A stretch of DNA of 64,000 nucleotides, taken from assembly GCA_902385255.1 (NCBI GenBank), contig CABMEV010000010.1, positions 64,114 to 128,113 on the forward strand, given 5' to 3'. Below the pieces are notes generated by a model, which was given only the letters and a program-made list of their open reading frames with translations, was not told where the DNA came from and ran no database searches. The stretch is from Candidatus Tiddalikarchaeum anstoanum (GTDB taxonomy: Archaea > Nanobdellota > Nanobdellia > Tiddalikarchaeales > Tiddalikarchaeaceae). A program made the translations under genes and the position numbers. Within the stretch, counting starts at the first letter, position 1, and each line of letters begins with the position of its first letter. This document shows positions 50,206 to 64,000 of this stretch, in pieces.

Positions 50206-51691
50206 TTTTTATCTTCCTCCATAAAGTTTTTGCATAATTTAATATGATTCTTAATAAGAAGAATGGTAGTATTAAAAAACCCAGCACTTTTTTAATTAAA
50301 TGGCTTTTCAAAAACACTGCGTTTTTGAATTCTATAAAAAACAGCCTTAAATCATAGCCATTCTTTAACAGGAAGTGAAATGGCACGTACTCGTTGAGGA
50401 ATAAATATTTCAGGCTTTTCGAATCTTTTATGTCCATCAGGGTATATAACGCATAGCGCATGTAGAATCTCTTTGCGTATTCTTCCAATTTTGCTTCATC
50501 CAGGCTCGGATTTTGAAAACGAGGTACTGTTTGTCCTTGCTTGTTTTTATAATTTTCATCAGTCCACGAGAATTTTTTGAGCAGCCCTTTTTCTACGGCG
50601 ATATCATAAACCCTGCTTCCAGGAAATATATCAAGCGGGCAGAATGAAAGTGACTGCGGCCTTAGTTTCCATGCTATATTAAACGTATCATTTATCGTCT
50701 TCTCATTATCACCAGGGTGGCCAATGATGAAGAAAGTTGTATAGTCAAGACCTACTTTTTCAGTAATCCTTATTGCCTTAATCACCTTTTCAACAGTTAT
50801 CATTTTATTAATGGATTTTAATATCTCATTATTCCCGCTTTCCACGCCGTACTCTATCATCACGCACCCGGCTGACTTTAATTTTTTTAACAATTCTTCA
50901 TCGACTGTGTCAACCCTGCCTAAGCATTCCCATTCTAGGTCTAGTTTTCTTTTAATTATCTCATTGCATATTTCAATAGCCCAGCTTTTTCTTGCGGTGA
51001 AAGTGTCATCTTTTATGTGGATGCGTTTTTTACCGTACTTGTTGATTAAGTATTCTATCTCATCGACAACTTTTTTGGCGCTTCGCGTTCTTAATTTCCT
51101 ATTCCATAATTTCGGGGAAGCGCAGAATGTACAGTCAAACGGGCAGCCTCTTGATGCAAACACTCCGAAATATTTGTACTTCTCCATTGGCAATAAGTCC
51201 CAGCCATAAGGGAGAGCATCTATATCCTGTATGAACAGCCTCGGCTGGTTTTTCCTGATTTTTTTCCCATCTCTGAATATTATTCCCTCTATTTCACCCA
51301 GTTTTTTGCCGCGGCAAATATCAAGCATGGTGTCTTCACCTTCCCCGAATACCACTATGTCTATGAAAGGATAATCCTGCATTATTTCTTCGCCCATGAA
51401 TGTGGCATGTACTCCGCCATAAACTGTCTTATAACCTAATTTTTTTGCACGCTTAAGCATATCCAGCGCTTCGAACCTATTATACGTAATGCTGGTAACC
51501 CCTACTATTTGGGGTTTTATTTTTTTAATCTCATTTTCCACCCTATTATTATCCCAGTTTAATATTTCGGCGTCTATTATGCTTACATCAATCCCATGTT
51601 CCTTAAGGTATCCGCCAATCATGGTAATACCTATTGGAGGTTCAAAATTACTTCCGCCAAATGAGAGACAATTTATTAGCACAATTTTCAT
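50195..51691 (-). CDS. B12-binding radical SAM enzyme (class B)
   Basis: 498 aa. MKIVLINCLSFGG... and RGCPFDCTFCAS (CxxxCxxC). Confidence 0.9.
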   Translation of the reverse strand: MKIVLINCLSFGGSNFEPPIGITMIGGYLKEHGIDVSIIDAEILNWDNNRVENEIKKIKPQIVGVTSITYNRFEALDMLKRAKKLGYKTVYGGVHATFMGEEIMQDYPFIDIVVFGEGEDTMLDICRGKKLGEIEGIIFRDGKKIRKNQPRLFIQDIDALPYGWDLLPMEKYKYFGVFASRGCPFDCTFCASPKLWNRKLRTRSAKKVVDEIEYLINKYGKKRIHIKDDTFTARKSWAIEICNEIIKRKLDLEWECLGRVDTVDEELLKKLKSAGCVMIEYGVESGNNEILKSINKMITVEKVIKAIRITEKVGLDYTTFFIIGHPGDNEKTINDTFNIAWKLRPQSLSFCPLDIFPGSRVYDIAVEKGLLKKFSWTDENYKNKQGQTVPRFQNPSLDEAKLEEYAKRFYMRYALYTLMDIKDSKSLKYLFLNEYVPFHFLLKNGYDLRLFFIEFKNAVFLKSHLIKKVLGFLILPFFLLRIILNYAKTLWRKIKNVL

Positions 51692-53016
51692 TTCATAATC
51701 ACTTTTTCAATTCCCTTATCAATTATTCGTATTGTTTTAAATTCTTTTGCTGTTTTCCTGCTTCTTTGCCTAAACCATTCTGCGAGATGTGTCATATTAG
51801 TTATCCAAATATTTCTTTTCTTGATGAGATTAAGCGTGAACCTTAACCCTCTAAAATCTAATGAAGGATGGTATAACACGTTTATTATTTCATTATTTTT
51901 GACCGAGTATTTGATGCTGTCAATAATTTCTCTTTTATCATGACACTCGAATAATGAAACTGGAAGTTCATAAAACTTGAATAACTTAGTTTTGTATACA
52001 GGATTAAATAATATGGATATTCCAACCAAACTCTTACTTTTTTTAGGTCTAATCTTTTTTGAAATATTTTTGCCGTAATTTATCGAAACTTCTTGGTATA
52101 ATGATGAATCGAGCGCTATTTCTGCATCATCCAGATTTTCAAGCATCAATGGCAGGAATATGTAGCCGTTATGAACTCTGGAGATTATGACTTTCTTCCC
52201 AACATAACGTTCAAGCTCTCTTTTTTGTACCAATATATTTGTAAAATTTCCATAAGCGTTATCATATAATGAATCATTTACGAATCCTTTACTGTACTCC
52301 CAAACTGTGCTTCCAAAATGCAGGCCTACTTCATCATTTTCTTTCGACGGGATGTATCCGTACCTTCCTGTTCCAAGAGGAGGAAATCTGCCATTTTCTT
52401 CTTTTGAGGTTTTTGGTGTTCTTAAAAACAGGGTTGGATATACTCCATATTTATGGCATGTTTCTAAGACATTAGGTGCAAACTTGAACCTCGTTTCCAT
52501 ACCAGCGTACCATAATGGGTAGAACATAGCTTTTAACAAGAAATCAGGGAGTTTAAGCAGGAAATTTAAAAAAAAATTATTTTTCTTCTTAATGTTTGCG
52601 TATTGTTTCTCAAAATCGATATCAAAGCTGAGCACGAATGCGCTCTCATAATTTTTGGGATAATACCACTTTGTTGTAATGGATAAATCATACGCTTTTG
52701 TTATCTCTTTTAAAATTTTAATTAAAATCTTCGGCTCATCTATGTTTGTTTGCTTGAAACTGAAAGCGTCATAAAACTGCTCTATAATCCTCTCATTTAC
52801 GTATATTGTATTATTTTCAAAAACATAATTTTTATCTAACTTTTTTTGTGTTATGAGGATTTTTCCAGTTTTTATTTTATTGCTGGAGAATATTATATCA
52901 CCTTCTGTTCCAGTTTTGTAATCAAGTCCTTCCCATTCTAAGAGGTTCTTCATTACTGCAAAAAATTTGCTGTTATCTTTTTTTAATGTAATAATCATTT
53001 TATTTTTTCCTCGCAA
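51688..53016 (-). CDS. Hypothetical protein in the glycan-modification operon
   Basis: 442-aa ORF whose ends overlap both neighbours. I cannot assign a family confidently. A weak polysaccharide-deacetylase-like guess was not supported. Confidence 0.45.
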   Translation of the reverse strand: MRGKNKMIITLKKDNSKFFAVMKNLLEWEGLDYKTGTEGDIIFSSNKIKTGKILITQKKLDKNYVFENNTIYVNERIIEQFYDAFSFKQTNIDEPKILIKILKEITKAYDLSITTKWYYPKNYESAFVLSFDIDFEKQYANIKKKNNFFLNFLLKLPDFLLKAMFYPLWYAGMETRFKFAPNVLETCHKYGVYPTLFLRTPKTSKEENGRFPPLGTGRYGYIPSKENDEVGLHFGSTVWEYSKGFVNDSLYDNAYGNFTNILVQKRELERYVGKKVIISRVHNGYIFLPLMLENLDDAEIALDSSLYQEVSINYGKNISKKIRPKKSKSLVGISILFNPVYKTKLFKFYELPVSLFECHDKREIIDSIKYSVKNNEIINVLYHPSLDFRGLRFTLNLIKKRNIWITNMTHLAEWFRQRSRKTAKEFKTIRIIDKGIEKVIMK

Positions 53017-53713
53017 AAATGATAATCTGGTTGGAATTGTCTTTGAAGAGATTGCTCAGCGGGAACAGGAGGAATTTGCGTATAACTGCATATCTAGAAA
53101 GTACAGGAAGGTCAAATAATATGCCTGAATATTTTAAAATCTCAAATCCGGATGTTTCTATTAACTTCTTCAGTTCTTTTGAGCTGTACCTTTTTTCACT
53201 CCAGCTCTTTTTATTTTTAGAGTAGATTACATCCTCCTCTGTTTTTTTACTAATTAACTTGTATAATATTTTTTTAATATTATCCTTATTTCCCAGACTT
53301 AGAATCAAATGGCCGTTTTTCTTGATTACTCTGTGTAATTCGTGCATCATCAAATTTTTATCATGATAGTATAATGTCTCCATACATAGAACTACATCAA
53401 AAGATTCGTCTTTGAACGGCAGTTTTACTGCATTCCCGACGAATACTTTTTCAATACTATTTTTTGCCCTAATAGCTGCCTGAAAGGATACGTCAATACC
53501 TATTATGTTGTCATAGCCTAATTCTTTTGAAAAGAAGCCTTCTCCGCATCCAACGTCGAGAATCCTTAATTTCTTATTATCTAGCGAATTCAGATAACTT
53601 TTTGTCTTCTTTACTCGCTCATAAAATTTTTCAGCCCTTATCTTGTTAGTAAATATTTCCCACGCATCTTTTCCCTTCTTATAGTAGTCTTCGAAAAATT
53701 CATTCTCATTCAT
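53000..53713 (-). CDS. Class I SAM-dependent methyltransferase
   Basis: 237 aa. ILDVGCGEGFFSKEL, FDVVLCMETLYYH. Confidence 0.8.
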   Translation of the reverse strand: MNENEFFEDYYKKGKDAWEIFTNKIRAEKFYERVKKTKSYLNSLDNKKLRILDVGCGEGFFSKELGYDNIIGIDVSFQAAIRAKNSIEKVFVGNAVKLPFKDESFDVVLCMETLYYHDKNLMMHELHRVIKKNGHLILSLGNKDNIKKILYKLISKKTEEDVIYSKNKKSWSEKRYSSKELKKLIETSGFEILKYSGILFDLPVLSRYAVIRKFLLFPLSNLFKDNSNQIIIFARKK

Positions 53714-54821
53714 TTAATTCACCTTGTGTCAGGCAGTCAAATATCTGCGATGTGTATAATAATGATTCATCATTCCTGAAGTTAACATCAAATAACTCCC
53801 TTTTTATCCTCTCCTTTATTCTTTTAATTCGCGTCATCGTTTCATATGTTAATCCTATGCTGGCATCTCCAGTTAACTCATTAATGCATCCTTTTGCCAG
53901 GCCAATTAATGAAAATCTCTTTTCATATCTTGGGAATGCGCCTTTATTGTTCTGCATTTTTGAAAGGATATTGATGCAAGTTTTCAGCTCTTCTTTATAC
54001 CCTTGTTCTTTGAAGCAGTAAGCTCCAAAACCATAAGCGCCGCTGGTTTTGTGGGAAAACATTAAGTGGCTTTTCTCCCACATGAAACCATTGTCATTTA
54101 TCGAGTTAGACAGCCATTGTCCGCCTTTTTCAAGGCTGATATCTAGATACTTATTCTTGATTTTGGATAATAACAAGTAATACATCGTTGTTCCCTGGTA
54201 GTGTATGTCAGGCACGTTTAAATGATACTCATAAGGGTAGCTTTGCACAGGCGTCGAGTACGGGTAAGCCCCATTTTTGAACTGGTGTCTTGCTATATTG
54301 AATATGCACCTTTCGCTCGCGTCTAATAATTTCTTGTTTTTCAATTCTTTTCCAAGATAACTTATGAAGGAGAGTACCGTAGCGTTAACGTTTAAGACAT
54401 CAGCGTAATGCTTGTATGATTTTATGAAAAATCCAGGACTGAACTCTTTTGTAAGAACATAATCAGCGGCCTTCTTTGCACAAATCAGGAATTTTTTACT
54501 GCCAGACTGCCTAAATGCATCAACCATAACCCTGCCGCATATGCTAGTTACTACAGTGCTCTCCTCATTCAAGTCAGGATGTATCTCATTCCAGCTGCCA
54601 TTACCATTCTGCCTTTTTAAAACCCAATTCAGTGATTTGTAAGCTTGTTCTTTCTCTTCCATAAAGAGCAGGCTTTTTCCGATTTCTGCACCAACCCTGT
54701 TTCTTTTGATGTTTAATACTGGGTCCAGGAAAGAACCATCTTCTCCCTGCAGGTTTAAAATGTAATCTTTTATTTTTTTAGTAATCATATTTTTTTGCAT
54801 ACCTTTAGTAATTTTTTGCAC
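53706..54821 (-). CDS. Prenyltransferase/terpene-cyclase-like alpha/alpha-toroid repeat protein
   Basis: 371 aa with four Q-x-x-[DN]-G-[SGA]-[FWY] repeats: LQGEDGSF, RQNGNGSW, HQFKNGAY, MQNNKGAF. Confidence 0.5.
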   Translation of the reverse strand: MQKITKGMQKNMITKKIKDYILNLQGEDGSFLDPVLNIKRNRVGAEIGKSLLFMEEKEQAYKSLNWVLKRQNGNGSWNEIHPDLNEESTVVTSICGRVMVDAFRQSGSKKFLICAKKAADYVLTKEFSPGFFIKSYKHYADVLNVNATVLSFISYLGKELKNKKLLDASERCIFNIARHQFKNGAYPYSTPVQSYPYEYHLNVPDIHYQGTTMYYLLLSKIKNKYLDISLEKGGQWLSNSINDNGFMWEKSHLMFSHKTSGAYGFGAYCFKEQGYKEELKTCINILSKMQNNKGAFPRYEKRFSLIGLAKGCINELTGDASIGLTYETMTRIKRIKERIKRELFDVNFRNDESLLYTSQIFDCLTQGELNE

Positions 54822-59240: not shown

Positions 59241-59993
59241 TTATTTCTTTTTAAAATAGTCCCATGCTTCTTCTACGCTGTCCCAGTTTCCCATATCCAA
59301 GTACATCGCATTTGTTGATACTACTTTTATCTTTTCGCCGTTCTTCAGCGCTGTCTTGAATACGTCAGGGACTTGGTATTCTCCTTTTAATCCAGGGGGA
59401 GTCTTCTCGATGTAGTCAAACACTTTCTTGTTGAATATGTAAATGCCAAGATTAACCAAGTATTTCCCGTTTACTTTGAATGGTTTTGCCTGTTCAAGTG
59501 TCGGCTTCTCAATTGTGTCAACTAATTCTCCTTTGTCATTGACTCTTAGTATTCCGTAAAGTGTCGGGTTATCAACTTCTCTGGCTAAGATAGTGGCAAA
59601 AGGCTTCTCCTTCTTGTGAACAAGGACTGCTTTTTTCATCTCATCTTCTGGATTAATAAAAGCATCACCAACGTGAACAATGAAATCCTCATCTATCCAT
59701 CCTTTTCCCTGCAGAATCGCGTGAGCAAGACCTTTTCTCTCTTCCTGAAATAAGTAGCCAATCTTCAATTTTCCGCTGTTAAACATTGTTCCATCACCTA
59801 AGTGGTCTATGATTGCACCCTTATGGCTTCCTACTATTACAAATATCTTATCAACGCCTGCGTAATTGTGCAATGTTTCAACAACGTGGTCAATGACGGC
59901 TTTTCTCTGGACGGGGAATAATTCTTTTGGGTTTGCTTTTGTGAATGGGTACATCCTTGTGCCGCTTCCTGCTGCTGGTATTAATCCAATCAT
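59241..59993 (-). CDS. Sugar-1-phosphate nucleotidyltransferase (short form, glucose-1-P thymidylyl/uridylyltransferase-like)
   Basis: 250 aa. MIGLIPAAGSGTRMYPFTKANPKELFPV. Confidence 0.85.
   Translation of the reverse strand: MIGLIPAAGSGTRMYPFTKANPKELFPVQRKAVIDHVVETLHNYAGVDKIFVIVGSHKGAIIDHLGDGTMFNSGKLKIGYLFQEERKGLAHAILQGKGWIDEDFIVHVGDAFINPEDEMKKAVLVHKKEKPFATILAREVDNPTLYGILRVNDKGELVDTIEKPTLEQAKPFKVNGKYLVNLGIYIFNKKVFDYIEKTPPGLKGEYQVPDVFKTALKNGEKIKVVSTNAMYLDMGNWDSVEEAWDYFKKK
59918..59990. repeat. ~70-bp near-identical direct repeat, copy 1 (5' end of nucleotidyltransferase gene)
   Basis: ggggaataattcttttgggtttgcttttgtgaatgggtacatccttgtgccgcttcctgctgctggtatta. Confidence 0.75.
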
Positions 59994-59995
59994 AT

Positions 59996-60787
59996 TTATT
60001 TTTTCACATCCTTTTCCTCTTTTTTAAGATTTCTAAAAAATTCGTTGGCTTTCTCGACACTCTCCCAGTTTCCTATATCTATATACTCGCCTTTTATTTT
60101 CACTACGCGTATCTTTTTGCCGTCTTTCAATGCCAGCTTTATAGAGTCTGTTATCTGGTACTCATCCTTTACACCTTTCGGGGTCTTTTCGATGTAAGAA
60201 AAAATCTCAGGTGAGAATATGTAAATCGCAGTCAGCGCCAAGTATTTATTACCCACTTTGTAGCTCTTTGCCTGTTCTAATGTCGGCTTCTCAAAAGTAT
60301 CAACTAAGTAATTTTTATTATCAACTTTTACAATACCATGATGAGTCGGGTCCTCAAGTTCAGTGACGAGTATTGTTGCAAAAGGCTTCTCCTTCCTTTG
60401 AATATTAACAGCATCCTTTAATTCGTCTTTAGGATGGATGAATGAATCTCCTGCGTGAACGATGAAGTCCTCGCTAATCCAGTTTTTTGCCTGGTAAATC
60501 GCGTGCGCGAGTCCAAGACGCTCTTCCTGAAAAAGGTATGCTATGCTTAAGTCGTTGCTGTCATCTTTGCCTCCGCTTCCAACGTGGTCTATTATTGCAC
60601 CTTTATGGCTTCCGACGATTATTAGTATCTTGTCAACACCCATGTATTTGTGCAAAGATTCTATTACGTGGTCTATCACTGCACGCCTCTCTATTGGGAA
60701 TAATTCTTTTGGGTTTGCTTTTGTGAATGGGTACATCCTTGTGCCGCTCCCTGCTGCTGGTATTATTCCTATCATTCTTTCATCCAC
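59996..60787 (-). CDS. Sugar-1-phosphate nucleotidyltransferase, tandem paralogue
   Basis: 263 aa. MIGIIPAAGSGTRMYPFTKANPKELFPI. The first ~30 aa are nearly identical to the downstream copy. Confidence 0.85.
   Translation of the reverse strand: MDERMIGIIPAAGSGTRMYPFTKANPKELFPIERRAVIDHVIESLHKYMGVDKILIIVGSHKGAIIDHVGSGGKDDSNDLSIAYLFQEERLGLAHAIYQAKNWISEDFIVHAGDSFIHPKDELKDAVNIQRKEKPFATILVTELEDPTHHGIVKVDNKNYLVDTFEKPTLEQAKSYKVGNKYLALTAIYIFSPEIFSYIEKTPKGVKDEYQITDSIKLALKDGKKIRVVKIKGEYIDIGNWESVEKANEFFRNLKKEEKDVKK
60700..60772. repeat. ~70-bp near-identical direct repeat, copy 2
   Basis: tgggaataattcttttgggtttgcttttgtgaatgggtacatccttgtgccgctccctgctgctggtatta. About 68/71 identities to copy 1. The rest of the two genes are far more diverged. 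Confidence 0.75.
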
Positions 60788-61713
60788 TCAATCATTTTTG
60801 CCAAGCCCGTTTCGAGTTTTATTTTAGGAGACCAGTTTAAGAGCTTTTTAGCTTTGGTGATATCAGGAACTCTCTGCGGAGGGTCGTCCATTGGCAGGTC
60901 TTTGAAAATTATCTTCGATTTGGAATTCGTGACTTTTACTATTTTTTTTGCAAGTTCCAGAATGGTAACTTCTTCAGGGTTGCCTATGTTGATAACTTCA
61001 CCATTTAACTCCTTCTTCGTTGCAAGCGTGTATATTCCTTCAATTAAATCATCGACGAAGCAGAAACTCCTAGTCTGTTTCCCGTCTCCGTAAATAGTTA
61101 TTGGTTCATTATCCAGTGCTTGCATGATGAAATTAGTCATTACCCTGCCGTCGTTGTACCTCATGTGGGGTCCGTAAGTGTTGAAAATTCTGACAATCCT
61201 GCAGTCAATGTTGAATTTGTGAATGAACTCATAGCATAACGCCTCTCCAAAACGCTTGCTTTCGTCATAACAGCTTCTTGGTCCGAAACTGTTAACGTAG
61301 CCGTAATAAGTTTCCGGTGTAGGTATCACTTCTGCCTTGCCGTAAACCTCGCTTGTGCTTGCGAATAAGAAGCGGGCGCTGTCTTTCTGTGCTTTTTTCA
61401 AAAGATTGAATGTGCCTATGCTGTTGGCGAGTAATGTGTCAAAAGAGTTAGTCTGATAATCGCTCGGGCTTGCCCTGCTTGCGAAGTGGAGTATTAAGTC
61501 AACTTTTTCAATATCATCCAGGTCTTTTGTAACATCTTTCTGCATGAATTTGAATCTTCCTGTTTTTCCAAGGTCTTCAATGTTATTTAGTGAACCAGTT
61601 CCCAAATGGTCTATGCAGATTACTTCATTGCCTGTATTTACGAATTTGCTGCAGAGGTGGCTGCCTATGAATCCAGCGCCTCCGGTAATTAAGACTTTCA
61701 TAATAGTAATCAA
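60772..61713 (-). CDS. UDP-glucuronate decarboxylase (UDP-xylose synthase)-like SDR
   Basis: 313 aa. MKVLITGGAGFIGSHLC, catalytic YDESKRFGE (UXS-type YDEGKR motif). Confidence 0.7.
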   Translation of the reverse strand: MITIMKVLITGGAGFIGSHLCSKFVNTGNEVICIDHLGTGSLNNIEDLGKTGRFKFMQKDVTKDLDDIEKVDLILHFASRASPSDYQTNSFDTLLANSIGTFNLLKKAQKDSARFLFASTSEVYGKAEVIPTPETYYGYVNSFGPRSCYDESKRFGEALCYEFIHKFNIDCRIVRIFNTYGPHMRYNDGRVMTNFIMQALDNEPITIYGDGKQTRSFCFVDDLIEGIYTLATKKELNGEVINIGNPEEVTILELAKKIVKVTNSKSKIIFKDLPMDDPPQRVPDITKAKKLLNWSPKIKLETGLAKMIEWMKE

Positions 61714-61739
61714 TCACTGCTAATTATAAATATATTACC

Positions 61740-61762
61740 TTTATCCTACTTGGTAGGATAAA
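61740..61762. promoter_or_regulatory. Perfect palindrome TTTATCCTAC-ttg-GTAGGATAAA (10-bp arms, 3-bp spacer) in the divergent promoter region; candidate operator
   Basis: Seen in sequence. It lies just upstream of the TATA-like element for the RHH-fused nucleotidyltransferase gene and 27-49 nt upstream of the minus-strand UXS-like gene start. Confidence 0.5.
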
Positions 61763-61766
61763 CAAC

Positions 61767-61777
61767 TTAATATATTA
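61767..61777 (+). promoter_or_regulatory. TATA-like element (CTTAATATATT) about 28 nt upstream of the ATG at 61800
   Basis: Seen in sequence. Confidence 0.4.
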
Positions 61778-61799: not shown

Positions 61800-62570
61800 A
61801 TGAAGAGTAAGCTGTCAATAACGCTGGATGAGAAGATAATAAAATCTTTGGATAAGTACATTGACGGAGTAAATATAAGGAACCGTTCCCAAGCTATAGA
61901 GTTCTTCATATCAAAGCACTTAAGCCAGAACAGGATTGCTGTGATACTGGCGTCGAAGATAGAGCCTTTCAGGATACTTGCTAAGATAAAAGGCCAGCCT
62001 TTGATTATGCATACTGTCAAGCTTCTTCAGTCTTATAATTTCAAGAAGTTGTTCGTGATTGGCGAGAAGGAGATTTTGTCGCAGGTTTTTACTGTTCTTG
62101 GGACCGGGCAGGAGTACTTGATGAGCATAGAGTATGTTGAGGACGTTAATCCGAAGGGTAGTGCTGCGTCTCTTTCGCTTTTGAAGAATAAGGTTGATTC
62201 GACGTTTCTGGTTGTTCCTGCTGATAATTTTTTCAATACTGATATTAATTCGTTCTGGACTTTTCATGTTAAGAGCGGCAAACTGGTTAACTTGGCTATC
62301 TCTGCTGCAAGTAATCCTACGAAGCTTGGTATTATAGACTTACAGGGTGGGAGTATTGTTGGTTTTGAGCAGAAGCCTAAGAAGAGTACGAGTTATCTTA
62401 TCTGGACTGGTATTATGATTTGCGAGCCTGAGATTTTATATTATAACTGCAATTCTATTGAGAAGGATTTGATACCGAAACTTATCTTAACTCGTGACTT
62501 GGGCGGTTTCGTATTTGCAGGCCAGTGGAAGAACATACACACAAAGAAAGACATAGAAGATTTACGCTAA
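61800..62570 (+). CDS. Sugar-phosphate nucleotidyltransferase with an N-terminal ribbon-helix-helix (CopG-like) extension
   Basis: 256 aa. N-terminal LSITLDEKIIKSLDKYIDGVNIRNRSQAIEFFISKHL fits the RHH pattern (beta strand xSxTLD, helix, RxRSxxI). It is followed by an NTP-transferase fold (IAVILASKIEP...VVPADNFF). Confidence 0.6.
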   Translation: MKSKLSITLDEKIIKSLDKYIDGVNIRNRSQAIEFFISKHLSQNRIAVILASKIEPFRILAKIKGQPLIMHTVKLLQSYNFKKLFVIGEKEILSQVFTVLGTGQEYLMSIEYVEDVNPKGSAASLSLLKNKVDSTFLVVPADNFFNTDINSFWTFHVKSGKLVNLAISAASNPTKLGIIDLQGGSIVGFEQKPKKSTSYLIWTGIMICEPEILYYNCNSIEKDLIPKLILTRDLGGFVFAGQWKNIHTKKDIEDLR

Positions 62571-62617
62571 ATTTAGAAATCGCAATTTGTTATCATGACT
62601 GATTCATAATCCTTTAA

Positions 62618-62640
62618 AAGAATAAAAATTCTTATTTTTT
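62618..62640 (+). terminator. Short hairpin plus oligo-T: AAGAAT-aaaa-ATTCTT-ATTTTTT
   Basis: Seen in sequence, 48 nt after the stop at 62570. Confidence 0.45.
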
Positions 62641-62645
62641 AATTT

Positions 62646-62804
62646 ATGAATAGTCTTAGAATTATACTAATAGTTCTTGGGGTAATAGGTCTGATATTAC
62701 TAATAACTAGTTCTAGTTTTATGAAGCCAGTATTATCTTGCTTTGATATGTCAAACGTGTCTAATACGTTTCAGTTTCAATGCATAGGTTTCTGGTTACA
62801 TTAA
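62646..62804 (+). CDS. Possible small hydrophobic protein (52 aa) in the intergenic region (speculative)
   Basis: MNSLRIILIVLGVIGLILLITSSSFMKPVLSCFDMSNVSNTFQFQCIGFWLH. One predicted TM. It is below the ORF-track size cut-off. Confidence 0.25.
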   Translation: MNSLRIILIVLGVIGLILLITSSSFMKPVLSCFDMSNVSNTFQFQCIGFWLH

Positions 62805-62888
62805 CCAACAAAAATTGAGTATTCAAGCTGATTTATTGTGCAAAGCCGTGTTTAGAGTTAAATATATAAATAAGTATTACTTCGTAAT

Positions 62889-63746
62889 ATGTTTATGATT
62901 GTTCGTGAACGAATTTCTCTAACAATAGATAAAAACGTCCTGGCGGCAGTTGACGCCACAGTAGACGGCAATAAAGTACGCAACAGAAGCCATGCAATGG
63001 AGGTCTTACTCTCAAAGGCACTGGGCAACAAGCGCGTGAAGAGGGCATTCATACTCGCAGGCGGCAAAGGCACAAGACTTAGGCCCATAACTTACGAAAT
63101 ACCTAAACCAATGGTGCCAATACACGGAAAACCATTATTACAGCACACCGTAGAACTATTGAAAAAATATGACATCAGAGATATCATAATCTCAATAGGA
63201 TTCTTAGGAGAAAAAATCCAGGAATACTTCGGCAATGGCTCAAAATTTGGAGTCAAAATAAGCTACGTAAAAGAAGACGAACCTCTCGGAACAGCAGGAC
63301 CACTTAAGATTGCAAAACCATTACTTGAAGACGCGCACTTCGTCATGATAAACGGAGACAACTTATTCAACATAGACTTGTTCGATATGATAAGCACACA
63401 CTTCGAAAACGGGGCTGTAGCAACAATAGCATTAACATCAGTTAGCGATCCGACAAAATTCGGAGTAGCACAGCTAAAAGGGAGAAAGATACTGAAATTC
63501 ATAGAAAAACCCAAGCTTGAAGAAGCACCTTCCAATTTAATCAATGCAGGAGTATACTTATTCTCGCCGAAAATATTCGATTACCTGCCTGAAAACAAAA
63601 AAAATATTATGATAGAAACAGAAGTTTTCCCAAAACTCTTAGAGAAAGGAGAGTTCTATGGCTACGTCATGGAGGGACAATGGCTTCCGGCAGGAACACC
63701 TGAAGAGTATGAGAAAGCAATACAAGAATGGAGAGATATAGAATGA
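62889..63746 (+). CDS. Sugar-phosphate nucleotidyltransferase (mannose-1-P guanylyltransferase-like) with an N-terminal RHH-like extension; paralogue of 61800..62570
   Basis: 285 aa. N-terminal ISLTIDKNVLAAVDATVDGNKVRNRSHAMEVLLSKAL, then AFILAGGKGTRLRPITYEIPKPMVPIHGKP (canonical nucleotidyltransferase G-loop). An alternative start at 62895 (MIVRE) aligns better with the paralogue. Confidence 0.8.
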   Translation: MFMIVRERISLTIDKNVLAAVDATVDGNKVRNRSHAMEVLLSKALGNKRVKRAFILAGGKGTRLRPITYEIPKPMVPIHGKPLLQHTVELLKKYDIRDIIISIGFLGEKIQEYFGNGSKFGVKISYVKEDEPLGTAGPLKIAKPLLEDAHFVMINGDNLFNIDLFDMISTHFENGAVATIALTSVSDPTKFGVAQLKGRKILKFIEKPKLEEAPSNLINAGVYLFSPKIFDYLPENKKNIMIETEVFPKLLEKGEFYGYVMEGQWLPAGTPEEYEKAIQEWRDIE

Positions 63747-64000
63747 GCATATTCAAATCTTATGACATCCGCGGAGTTTACCCAACAGAGATAAACGAAG
63801 AAAACGTATACAAGATAGCAAGGGCATACATTGAATTTACAAAATTCAGAAAAATAGTAGTCGGCCGCGACATGAGACTCTCCTCACCAATGCTTTACTC
63901 TGCAATAGTAAGAGGATTAATAGACCAGGGAACTGAAGTAATAGACGTCGGCGAAGTCAGCACTCCGATGTTTTACTACGCAGTAAACAAACTTGACGCT
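63743..64000 (+). CDS. Phosphomannomutase/phosphoglucomutase (alpha-D-phosphohexomutase), partial; runs off the window
   Basis: MSIFKSYDIRGVYPTEINEENVYKIARAY...GRDMRLSSP. YDIRGV is the typical N-terminus. The start overlaps the previous stop (ATGA). Confidence 0.85.
   Translation, partial: MSIFKSYDIRGVYPTEINEENVYKIARAYIEFTKFRKIVVGRDMRLSSPMLYSAIVRGLIDQGTEVIDVGEVSTPMFYYAVNKLDA

Follow-up and report, generated by a model that had tools for sequence, protein, structure and literature searches.

The stretch of DNA considered here, 64,000 nucleotides of contig CABMEV010000010.1 (positions 64,114 to 128,113, forward strand; termed the window and numbered from its first letter), originates from Candidatus Tiddalikarchaeum anstoanum, a DPANN archaeon represented by a metagenome-assembled genome of the Nanoarchaeia. 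The window is a glycan-biosynthesis locus, which codes for a Wzx-like flippase, GT1 and GT2 glycosyltransferases, methyltransferases, a B12-radical SAM enzyme, and a UDP-GlcNAc 2-epimerase with a nucleotide-sugar dehydrogenase. Two of its genes, termed A and B, encode sugar nucleotidyltransferase-like proteins headed by a predicted ribbon-helix-helix (RHH) domain. Gene A (61800-62570, + strand) specifies 256 amino acids, in which the NTP_transferase-like domain is devoid of the G-x-G-T-R...P-K loop, and gene B (62895-63746, + strand) specifies 283 amino acids, in which a sugar-1-phosphate nucleotidyltransferase domain has retained the loop intact (GGKGTRLRP...PKP). Neither gene is mentioned in the genome paper of the organism (PMC8561730), and the public records that are 100% identical to the two products (P0001 and P0121) name B as 'Bifunctional protein GlmU' and A as 'Nucleotidyl transferase'.

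The peptides quoted in a preliminary description of the window, SITLDEKIIKSLD...RNRSQAIEFF and SLTIDKNVLAAVD...RNRSHAMEVL, are both present in the translations. A and B align end to end with the RHH segment included (31% identity, BLASTP E 9e-46), and are full-length paralogues. The longest open reading frame (ORF) of B extends from 62889 to 63746 (285 amino acids) and contains two in-frame ATG codons, at 62889 and 62895. The former had been taken as the start, but the latter (MIVRER...) is the likely one, since it is used in the public annotation (P0001, 283 amino acids) and its 'GTT ATG AT' context is kept in relatives; ATG 62889 falls within the second heptad of the predicted B operator described below.

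The RHH domain is assigned to residues 1-46 of A (61800-61937, + strand), with the strand K4-x-S6-x-T8 and N-R-S-Q at the opening of helix 2, and to residues 1-49 of B (62895-63041, + strand), with the strand R-x-S-x-T and N-R-S-H at the same place. The isolated N-termini of A and B score 21.0 and 21.7 bits against Pfam RHH_1, above the cutoff of 20.5, and the whole proteins remain below it with 16.5 and 17.0 bits; weak NikR matches of NCBIfam to residues 4-45 of A lie far under their cutoffs. Since a phmmer search of the PDB with the single N-terminus of B gave just marginal RHH matches, with a spurious designed beta-trefoil ranked at the top, a family profile was required, and it was constructed from 52 non-redundant N-termini of both the A and B families. 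This profile matched the RHH domain of Escherichia coli NikR over residues 2-44, nearly the whole domain, with an E-value of 5.3e-7, followed by Pyrococcus horikoshii NikR (1.4e-3), the RHH antitoxin Rv0298 (1.7e-3), and CopG (8.7e-3). Individually, 47 of the 52 N-termini match RHH_1, the best at 4e-7, and the segment of A reaches 79.8 bits in a profile search of cluster representatives. The best-conserved positions are T10, D20, D24, and N30-R31-S32-x-A34-x-E36, where S32 is invariant and N30 and R31 exceed 90%, and the last motif aligns with NRSEAI, which opens helix 2 of NikR.

An AlphaFold2 model of full-length B (76-sequence alignment, predicted local distance difference test score, pLDDT, 92.5) places residues 1-12 in an extended conformation, followed by helices at 13-21 and 31-43, all of which come before the enzyme's first strand (residue 50). 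No strand of the Rossmann sheet is assigned to residues 1-12, an assignment which would have made the extension a part of the enzyme fold. The isolated B domain adopts the same pattern of an extended segment and two helices with a pLDDT of 83.7 (82-93 for the domain across models), although the N-terminal helices of B could conceivably pack against the enzyme. Solved nucleotidyltransferases cover just about 230-260 of the 283 residues of B in structural alignments, and a PDB search returned no chain spanning both the RHH and the enzyme parts. The RHH/CopG character first noticed in the preliminary description is thus supported for both N-termini, mainly by sequence and predicted secondary structure.

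The enzyme domains of the two proteins have diverged considerably. Pfam NTP_transferase (PF00483) matches B at 5.4e-52 over profile positions 2-241 of 245, and the Rossmann-like fold is present in this protein, whose model finds 8x7s, 7x8j, and 3hl3 at template-modelling (TM) scores of 0.7-0.78, the best being the UDP-glucose pyrophosphorylase 8x7s (E 4e-25). The NCBIfam equivalog matches are all under their cutoffs, led by mannose-1-phosphate guanylyltransferase (194.7 vs 440 bits) and rmlA_long (181.6 vs 320). In A the fold is matched by PF00483 at 6.4e-17 over profile positions 27-203 only, and both the Pfam and the PDB alignments begin past the signature loop, those of the PDB at residue 60. 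Alignment of the loop (AVILA----SKIEPF-----RILAKIKG in A, AFILAGGKGTRLRPITYEIPKPMVPIHG in B) revealed two deletions of four and five residues, nine in total, which take out GGKG and TYEIP together with the P-K lysine and leave A with AVILASKIEPFRILAKIKG. A complete nucleotidyltransferase fold was previously credited to both proteins; in A, however, the catalytic apparatus is incomplete. The consensus of 100 members of the A family likewise is without G-x-G-T-R...P-K. The first of two metal-binding Asp residues, which we take to be the equivalents of RmlA D110/D225, is kept in both proteins (MINGDNLF in B, VVPADNFF in A), and the position of the second is occupied by Asn in A, which also lacks the N-x-G-x-Y motif. 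Since the catalytic loop is lost, A is probably a non-catalytic, ligand-sensing pseudoenzyme, in which a nucleotide- or sugar-binding pocket may persist, as the KPK lysine and the G-S-A motif are retained. Degenerate G-loops also occur in many other RHH-nucleotidyltransferase subfamilies (P0222-P0368), for instance ILAGGPEEKI... and LAGGKKSKAGHPKAM..., which suggests repeated conversion of the enzyme domain to a sensor.

The fusion is widely distributed. Homologues of B are matched over 98-99% of the query with the extension included (more than 100 among the matches listed), and the motif [KR]ER[IV][ST]LT[IL]D...VDG..I[KR]NRSHA[IV]E is kept in them; in the GTDB set, with one genome per species, the match begins within query residues 1-7 in about 60 of the best 80 loci. 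The N-terminal extension is hence neither absent from nor unconserved in the orthologues. Its carriers comprise Nanoarchaeia, Woesearchaeota, Parvarchaeota (including ARMAN-4), Aenigmatarchaeota, Altiarchaeota, and the Asgard 'Atabeyarchaeum' among the archaea, and Saccharibacteria, Berkelbacteria, and other Patescibacteria of the candidate phyla radiation (CPR). Among 1.84 billion representatives, the profile of the RHH part retrieved 1023 clusters (50% identity) at E<=1e-3, of which 272 also pass E<=1e-10. Of the best 147 that were examined, 140 hits were longer than 52 amino acids, and 82 of these continue into a nucleotidyltransferase-like start ('A[VI]ILAGG...'); many short hits resemble truncated fragments. 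The RHH subtype (IRNRS[HQ]AIE) is, by its sequence context, tied mainly to the nucleotidyltransferase fold. In P0276 and P0313 the RHH runs on into unrelated C-terminal sequence, and an Aenigmatarchaeota contig (L048, 2150-3830) harbors two tandem RHH-nucleotidyltransferases with the strands R-T-T and R-S-T. Databases treat the fusion proteins as plain enzymes ('GlmU', 'NDP-sugar pyrophosphorylase', nucleotidyltransferase). The preliminary description knew of no described fusion of this type, and our literature searches for a combination of RHH/CopG with nucleotidyltransferase, pyrophosphorylase, or NTP_transferase likewise found none in open-access papers, a scope in which absence is not proof. 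The combination, its operators, and the pseudoenzyme branch are apparently undescribed in the open-access literature.

Upstream of gene A lies a palindrome (61740-61762) with 10-nt arms, which are 100% complementary, and a 3-nt spacer. It is made up of the heptads ATCCTAC (61743-61749) and GTAGGAT (61753-61759), which together with ATATTAC (61732-61738) constitute the predicted A operator (61732-61759), with starts 11 and 10 nt apart. Two TATA-like boxes flank the palindrome as a direct and inverted repeat pair: AATATATTA at 61769-61777 (+ strand) serves gene A, about 27 nt upstream of its ATG, and AATATATTA at 61729-61737 (- strand) overlaps the ATATTAC heptad and serves the divergent operon of a short-chain dehydrogenase/reductase (SDR). 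The position of the latter box relative to ATG 61701 suggests an SDR promoter of the leaderless or short-leader archaeal type, and the gene A mRNA is presumably leaderless as well. The A operator is unique in the window, and the palindrome is kept upstream of A in three relatives (L001, L003, and L004) whose proteins are 60-67% identical.

The heptad ATCCTAC/GTAGGAT was fixed from the window beforehand and then applied to an independent set of 74 non-identical promoters of metagenomic A-type genes, the proteins of which are only 33-41% identical to A. An exact heptad was found within 100 nt upstream in 55 of the 74 promoters, as compared with a background of 17 occurrences in 220 kb (0.008 per search window; binomial 6e-99). 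At least two units occur in 53 promoters, where adjacent units are spaced by 11 nt 51 times and by 10 nt 8 times. Among the 19 promoters without a hit, 8 carry the heptad farther upstream, and several others display the variants ATACTAC or ATCATAC with the same spacing. The consensus of the distant A-type promoters, TAAATATCTTACCTTTATCCTACTTTATCCGATAAATTTATATATT, consists of three heptads, 11 and 10 nt from start to start, which fill the space between two TATA-like boxes; the window shows the same three-heptad layout, and the metagenomic consensus carries TTTATATA where the window has the TATA-like box of gene A. The heptads also stay with the A gene where the divergent neighbour is not a dehydrogenase (L088, L091, and L163). 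These results strongly support the earlier suggestion that the palindrome is an operator, as far as promoter sequences can.

A second predicted operator (62874-62890), GTATTAC-TTC-GTAATAT, is located in front of gene B, where two GTAnTAC-type heptads 10 nt apart are placed between the TATA-like box AAATATATAAATAA (62860-62873, + strand; kept as ATATATAAATAA in L001, L003, and L004) and the start, 4 nt short of ATG 62895. Relatives carry GTATTAC-N3-GTA[AT]TAC at the same position. With one mismatch to GTAWTAC-N3-GTAWTAC, the B operator is the sole intergenic match in the window. No further operator copies beyond the two promoters were found in the window with 2-3 mismatches allowed; an extra match at 54167 (two mismatches) is within a gene, was at chance level, and was rejected. 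There is no evidence for a wider regulon within the 64 kb. The proposal that such proteins would couple nucleotide-sugar supply to transcription of the glycan locus would consequently have to be narrowed to A, B, and the divergent promoter of A, where the predicted operators are found.

Enrichment of 6-mers against random locus windows was swamped by TATA-like AT-rich words, so that promoter-region controls and specific heptad tests were employed. In 60 B-type promoters of the GTDB set, GTATTAC/GTAATAC occurs in 13 and ATCATAC/GTATGAT in 18, against backgrounds of 0.007 and 0.019 per search window, respectively. Half-site pairs 8-12 nt apart were observed in 21 of 65 B-type promoters vs 7 of 168 control promoters of the same loci, with an optimistic Fisher value of 4e-8. 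In a Saccharibacteria locus (L050, CAZKRD010000003.1), the gene at 2995 is preceded, at a distance of about 70 nt, by direct GTATGAT repeats (GTATGATAAAGTATGATA) between a TTGACC -35 and a TATAAT -10 element, the classic position of a bacterial repressor, and the operator logic appears to have been transplanted into a bacterial promoter.

The heptad type varies with the outward-facing strand residues, which were read at -26, -24, and -22 from the Ser of N-R-S. Proteins with K-S-T strands (n=74) are accompanied by ATCCTAC in 57 cases and by GTATTAC and ATCATAC in 3 each; those with R-S-T (n=12) by GTATTAC in 9 and by ATCCTAC and ATCATAC in 1 each; and those with R-T-T (n=41) by ATCATAC/GTATGAT in 17, GTATTAC in 6, and ATCCTAC in 2 (chi-square 91, p 7e-19). 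The R-T-T strand ERVTLTLD resembles QRVTITLD of NikR, whose operator is GTATGA-N16-TCATAC (PMC7055735), and the NikR half-sites GTATGA/TCATAC equal the heptad core found upstream of the R-T-T members. Such a pattern would be expected of cognate regulator-operator pairs and seems hard to explain by another factor.

Taken together, A and B are best read, with a probability of roughly 0.7, as members of a widespread undescribed family in which an RHH domain of the NikR/CopG type is joined via a linker of about six residues to a sugar-1-phosphate nucleotidyltransferase, and which would act as trigger-enzyme regulators through putative DNA binding. In the proposed mechanism, the N-terminal strands of two chains would pair as the RHH beta-ribbon, which reads a 7-bp heptad in the major groove, one RHH dimer per heptad. 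RmlA-type enzymes are dimers or tetramers. Oligomerisation of the nucleotidyltransferase domains would thereby bring two or three RHH dimers onto the same face of the DNA, at heptads spaced by 10-11 bp, and a nucleoside triphosphate (NTP), sugar-1-phosphate, or nucleoside diphosphate (NDP)-sugar in the pocket would shift the affinity for DNA. B, which keeps the catalytic loop, is probably a true 'trigger enzyme'. It would repress its own operon (B and the phosphoglucomutase/phosphomannomutase gene onward), given that its predicted operator is positioned after the TATA box and ahead of the presumed leaderless start; known archaeal repressors bound at such a site block the recruitment of RNA polymerase. 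A is probably a pure sensor-regulator of the region shared by its own and the divergent promoter. The A operator occupies the space proximal to the transcription factor B recognition elements of the two divergent promoters and overlaps the TATA box of the - strand, and A would co-regulate its own gene along with the SDR/nucleotidyltransferase operon or, in relatives, along with the gene for UDP-glucose dehydrogenase. The ligand of A is likely a UDP-sugar of the UDP-Glc/UDP-GlcA/UDP-Xyl branch, since the divergent promoter drives the SDR and nucleotidyltransferases here and UDP-glucose 6-dehydrogenase in most of the distant relatives. The more ambitious proposal, which we find marginally favored, is that a large class of transcription factors that sense nucleotide sugars has gone unrecognised in the fusions of DPANN, Altiarchaeota, Asgard, and CPR lineages, a class comprising active trigger enzymes and pseudoenzymes, which would control the UDP-glucose dehydrogenase/UDP-xylose and hexose-1-phosphate branches for surface glycans with the recognition code K-S-T to ATCCTAC, R-S-T to GTATTAC, and R-T-T to ATCATAC.

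Several observations limit this interpretation or weigh against it. Foldseek of the isolated 49-residue monomer model against the PDB returned nothing significant (best E 5.6; the top matches include plant TCP-domain DNA complexes at a TM score of 0.53), which is unsurprising because an obligate-dimer fold was modelled as a monomer; such a model cannot display the defining intermolecular beta-ribbon. The background rates for the heptads include coding DNA, about a quarter to half of the promoters carry no recognisable heptad, and the half-site motif was defined post hoc on the very B-type promoters tested, which renders the Fisher value optimistic. The enrichment and covariation statistics ignore phylogenetic relatedness, by which the counts are confounded. 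Both directions of regulation are conceivable, as the operator is found ahead of the TATA box in some lineages and behind it, before the start, in others. The catalytic competence of B is uncertain, because the second metal-binding Asp is missing in its clade, where Pro takes its place: the segment GQWLPAGT (about residues 261-268 of B, 63675-63698) is found in 31 of 120 homologues vs GQWFDTGT in 56 of 120. Sites just upstream of TATA boxes have been read as activating for the archaeal regulator RbkR (PMC5397151).

Three other explanations of the data deserve consideration. Both A and B might be ordinary active NDP-sugar pyrophosphorylases that also autoregulate, with the loop of A as a variant active site, in which the conserved Y-R/F-R of the shortened loop could stand in for the catalytic Arg. 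The retention of the first metal-binding Asp (VVPADNFF), the KPK lysine, and G-S-A in A, as well as the persisting match of its fold (E 6e-17), would be in line with this reading, which nevertheless appears unlikely: the nine deleted loop residues include GGKG and the P-K lysine, Asn replaces the second metal-binding Asp, N-x-G-x-Y is lost, all Pfam and PDB alignments start past the loop, and loop decay recurs in several RHH-fused subfamilies, as expected of a sensor domain. Even less probable, in our estimate, is that the RHH-like segment serves only as a module for oligomerisation or stability without binding DNA, with the repeats being promoter elements or sites of other factors. RHH folds are obligate dimers and hence suit a dimerisation module, the monomer model has no significant RHH match in Foldseek, and an exact heptad is missing from 19 of the 74 A-type promoters and from most R-T-T promoters. 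Against these points stand the top-conserved residues, which are the DNA-contacting ones of RHH proteins (the alternating polar strand residues and N-R-S of helix 2), the alignment to the DNA-binding domain of NikR, the shift of the heptad type with the strand residues, and the heptads that accompany the A gene despite a different divergent neighbour (L091, L163, and L088).

The third explanation, to which almost no credence is given, regards the RHH as an accidentally fused remnant of an antitoxin or plasmid CopG-like protein, or as a gene-calling merge with a small upstream RHH gene. It could draw on the weak matches to RHH_1 and HicB-like antitoxin models and on the antitoxin Rv0298 among the PDB hits, but the frame is continuous, with the linker of about six residues, in hundreds of independent assemblies, no toxin gene adjoins, the neighbours are sugar-nucleotide genes, and the RHH subtype mostly runs straight into a nucleotidyltransferase-like start (82 of the 140 hits exceeding 52 amino acids). 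Membership among the type II antitoxins was rejected on similar grounds: the RHH is fused to a 230-residue enzyme domain, and the neighbours are SDR, nucleotidyltransferase, and phosphoglucomutase/phosphomannomutase genes, with no toxin.

Placing A and B, as proposed RHH-bearing trigger-enzyme regulators, among known systems reveals instructive parallels and differences. PutA is the classic RHH 'trigger enzyme'; from the intergenic region that putA and putP share, it represses both of these divergent genes. Similar to A and B, it carries an N-terminal RHH fused to a metabolic enzyme (proline dehydrogenase/pyrroline-5-carboxylate dehydrogenase); it differs in enzyme class and pathway and in its redox-driven membrane association, as opposed to the allosteric ligand control proposed here, and PutA is bacterial, whereas the RHH-nucleotidyltransferase family is mostly archaeal (DPANN, Altiarchaeota, and Asgard) with additional CPR bacteria. 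Omega of pSM19035, ParG, CopG, Arc, and MetJ place one RHH dimer on each short repeat, with several dimers acting co-operatively on direct or inverted repeats. They are small stand-alone or short-tailed proteins in contrast with the 230-residue enzyme domain of A and B, and the operator repeats of the latter are, unlike theirs, one full helical turn apart. Among solved structures, NikR is the nearest to the N-terminal domain (strand R-V-T-I-T-L-D, helix-2 start N-R-S-E-A-I) and has the arrangement proposed for A and B, an RHH dimer with a C-terminal ligand-binding oligomerisation domain, but this domain is an ACT-like nickel-binding tetramerisation domain instead of a Rossmann-like nucleotidyltransferase, its half-sites are 16 bp apart rather than 10-11 bp as for the heptads, and its ligand is a metal rather than the predicted nucleotide or sugar. 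Membership in the NikR family was rejected, as NikR models cover residues 4-45 only and the C-terminus is NTP_transferase.

The enzyme-regulator fusions BirA, NadR, PutA, and archaeal RbkR have been grouped as trigger enzymes, and every known member belongs to the metabolism of vitamins, cofactors, or amino acids (PMC5397151), as opposed to that of nucleotide sugars or glycan precursors. In RbkR, BirA, and NadR, as proposed for A and B, the enzyme domain doubles as the effector sensor of a transcription factor, and NadR even contains a nucleotidyltransferase (nicotinamide mononucleotide adenylyltransferase); these three differ in using a helix-turn-helix or winged helix-turn-helix instead of an RHH. 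RbkR, an archaeal riboflavin kinase/regulator, was found via comparative genomics of operators at its own and pathway genes, near TATA boxes (PMC5397151). For the presumed loss of catalysis in A, a precedent is provided by GMPPA, a non-catalytic NDP-sugar pyrophosphorylase paralogue, which binds GDP-mannose and regulates GMPPB (PMC11228364), and NCBIfam lists GalF as 'GalU regulator'. GMPPA and GalF, as paralogues without catalysis turned regulators, resemble what is presumed for A, and the NDP-sugar binding kept by GMPPA parallels the predicted sensor role of A; they act via protein-protein contact with the active enzyme, whereas A carries the RHH domain and is predicted to act on transcription.

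The neighbourhood of A and B is also rich in nucleotide-sugar genes. The divergent SDR gene (60772-61713, - strand; probable start ATG 61701) is of the dTDP-glucose dehydratase/UDP-xylose synthase/ArnA-like type, with all NCBIfam matches under curated cutoffs, and is the likely target of A; it is syntenic in L001-L004 and L085. Downstream of it and in the same direction are two tandem AglF/GalU-like nucleotidyltransferase genes without RHH (59241-60787, - strand), syntenic in L001 and L003, which probably form one operon with the SDR gene. On the other side, the start of the phosphoglucomutase/phosphomannomutase gene (63743-64000, + strand; Pfam PGM_PMM_I 3.7e-22) overlaps the stop codon of B (ATGA, 63743-63746), which suggests translational coupling and makes this gene a probable operon partner of B. 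Relatives L001-L004 keep the order B, two phosphoglucomutase/phosphomannomutase genes, and a GlmU-like gene. More generally, the gene order is kept in relatives from the - strand nucleotidyltransferases and SDR through the divergent intergenic region and A to a variable stretch, B, and the phosphoglucomutase/phosphomannomutase gene. With A, B, the tandem AglF/GalU-like pair, and the GlmU-like gene of relatives, at least four or five NTP_transferase paralogues are present in the region. In 40 of 79 distant metagenomic A-type loci, the divergent neighbour is UDP-glucose 6-dehydrogenase (TuaD 616 bits, AglM 417 bits).

Some further features of these loci were noticed. The interval between A and B (62571-62859) contains just a 52-residue hydrophobic ORF (62646-62804) with no Pfam match; in relatives it is occupied by two ORFs of unknown function (L001), a methyltransferase gene (L003), or genes for an amidohydrolase and a PIF1-like helicase (L004). 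In L091, L093, L095, and L109, which represent a single sublineage, a conserved protein of about 308 amino acids with no NCBIfam match is encoded between the A gene and UDP-glucose dehydrogenase, and it has its operator region in common with A. Elsewhere in the glycan locus, a 371-residue ORF (53706-54821, - strand) gave a weak partial Pec_lyase match (1.9e-7) with no stretch passing alone, and a 442-residue ORF (51688-53016) had no Pfam match.

To our knowledge, almost nothing is known on how transcription is regulated in DPANN archaea and CPR bacteria, or on the archaeal control of nucleotide-sugar supply for surface glycans, which are thought to matter in the attachment of episymbionts to their hosts. 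If the fusions are regulators as proposed, none controlling the supply of glycan precursors would have been described before them in these ultra-small, host-dependent organisms, and they would represent a prokaryotic DNA-binding counterpart of pseudoenzyme sensors such as GMPPA. The 'trigger enzyme' concept (PMC5397151) would thereby reach nucleotide-sugar metabolism, and hundreds of 'GlmU' or 'NDP-sugar pyrophosphorylase' entries would need re-annotation as regulators. Meanwhile, the family, with about 1000 clusters and a 7-bp operator unit that may be predictable from three residues, offers a testable system of regulator, operator, and ligand, in which the active-looking B and the degenerate A, side by side in one locus, constitute a natural pair.

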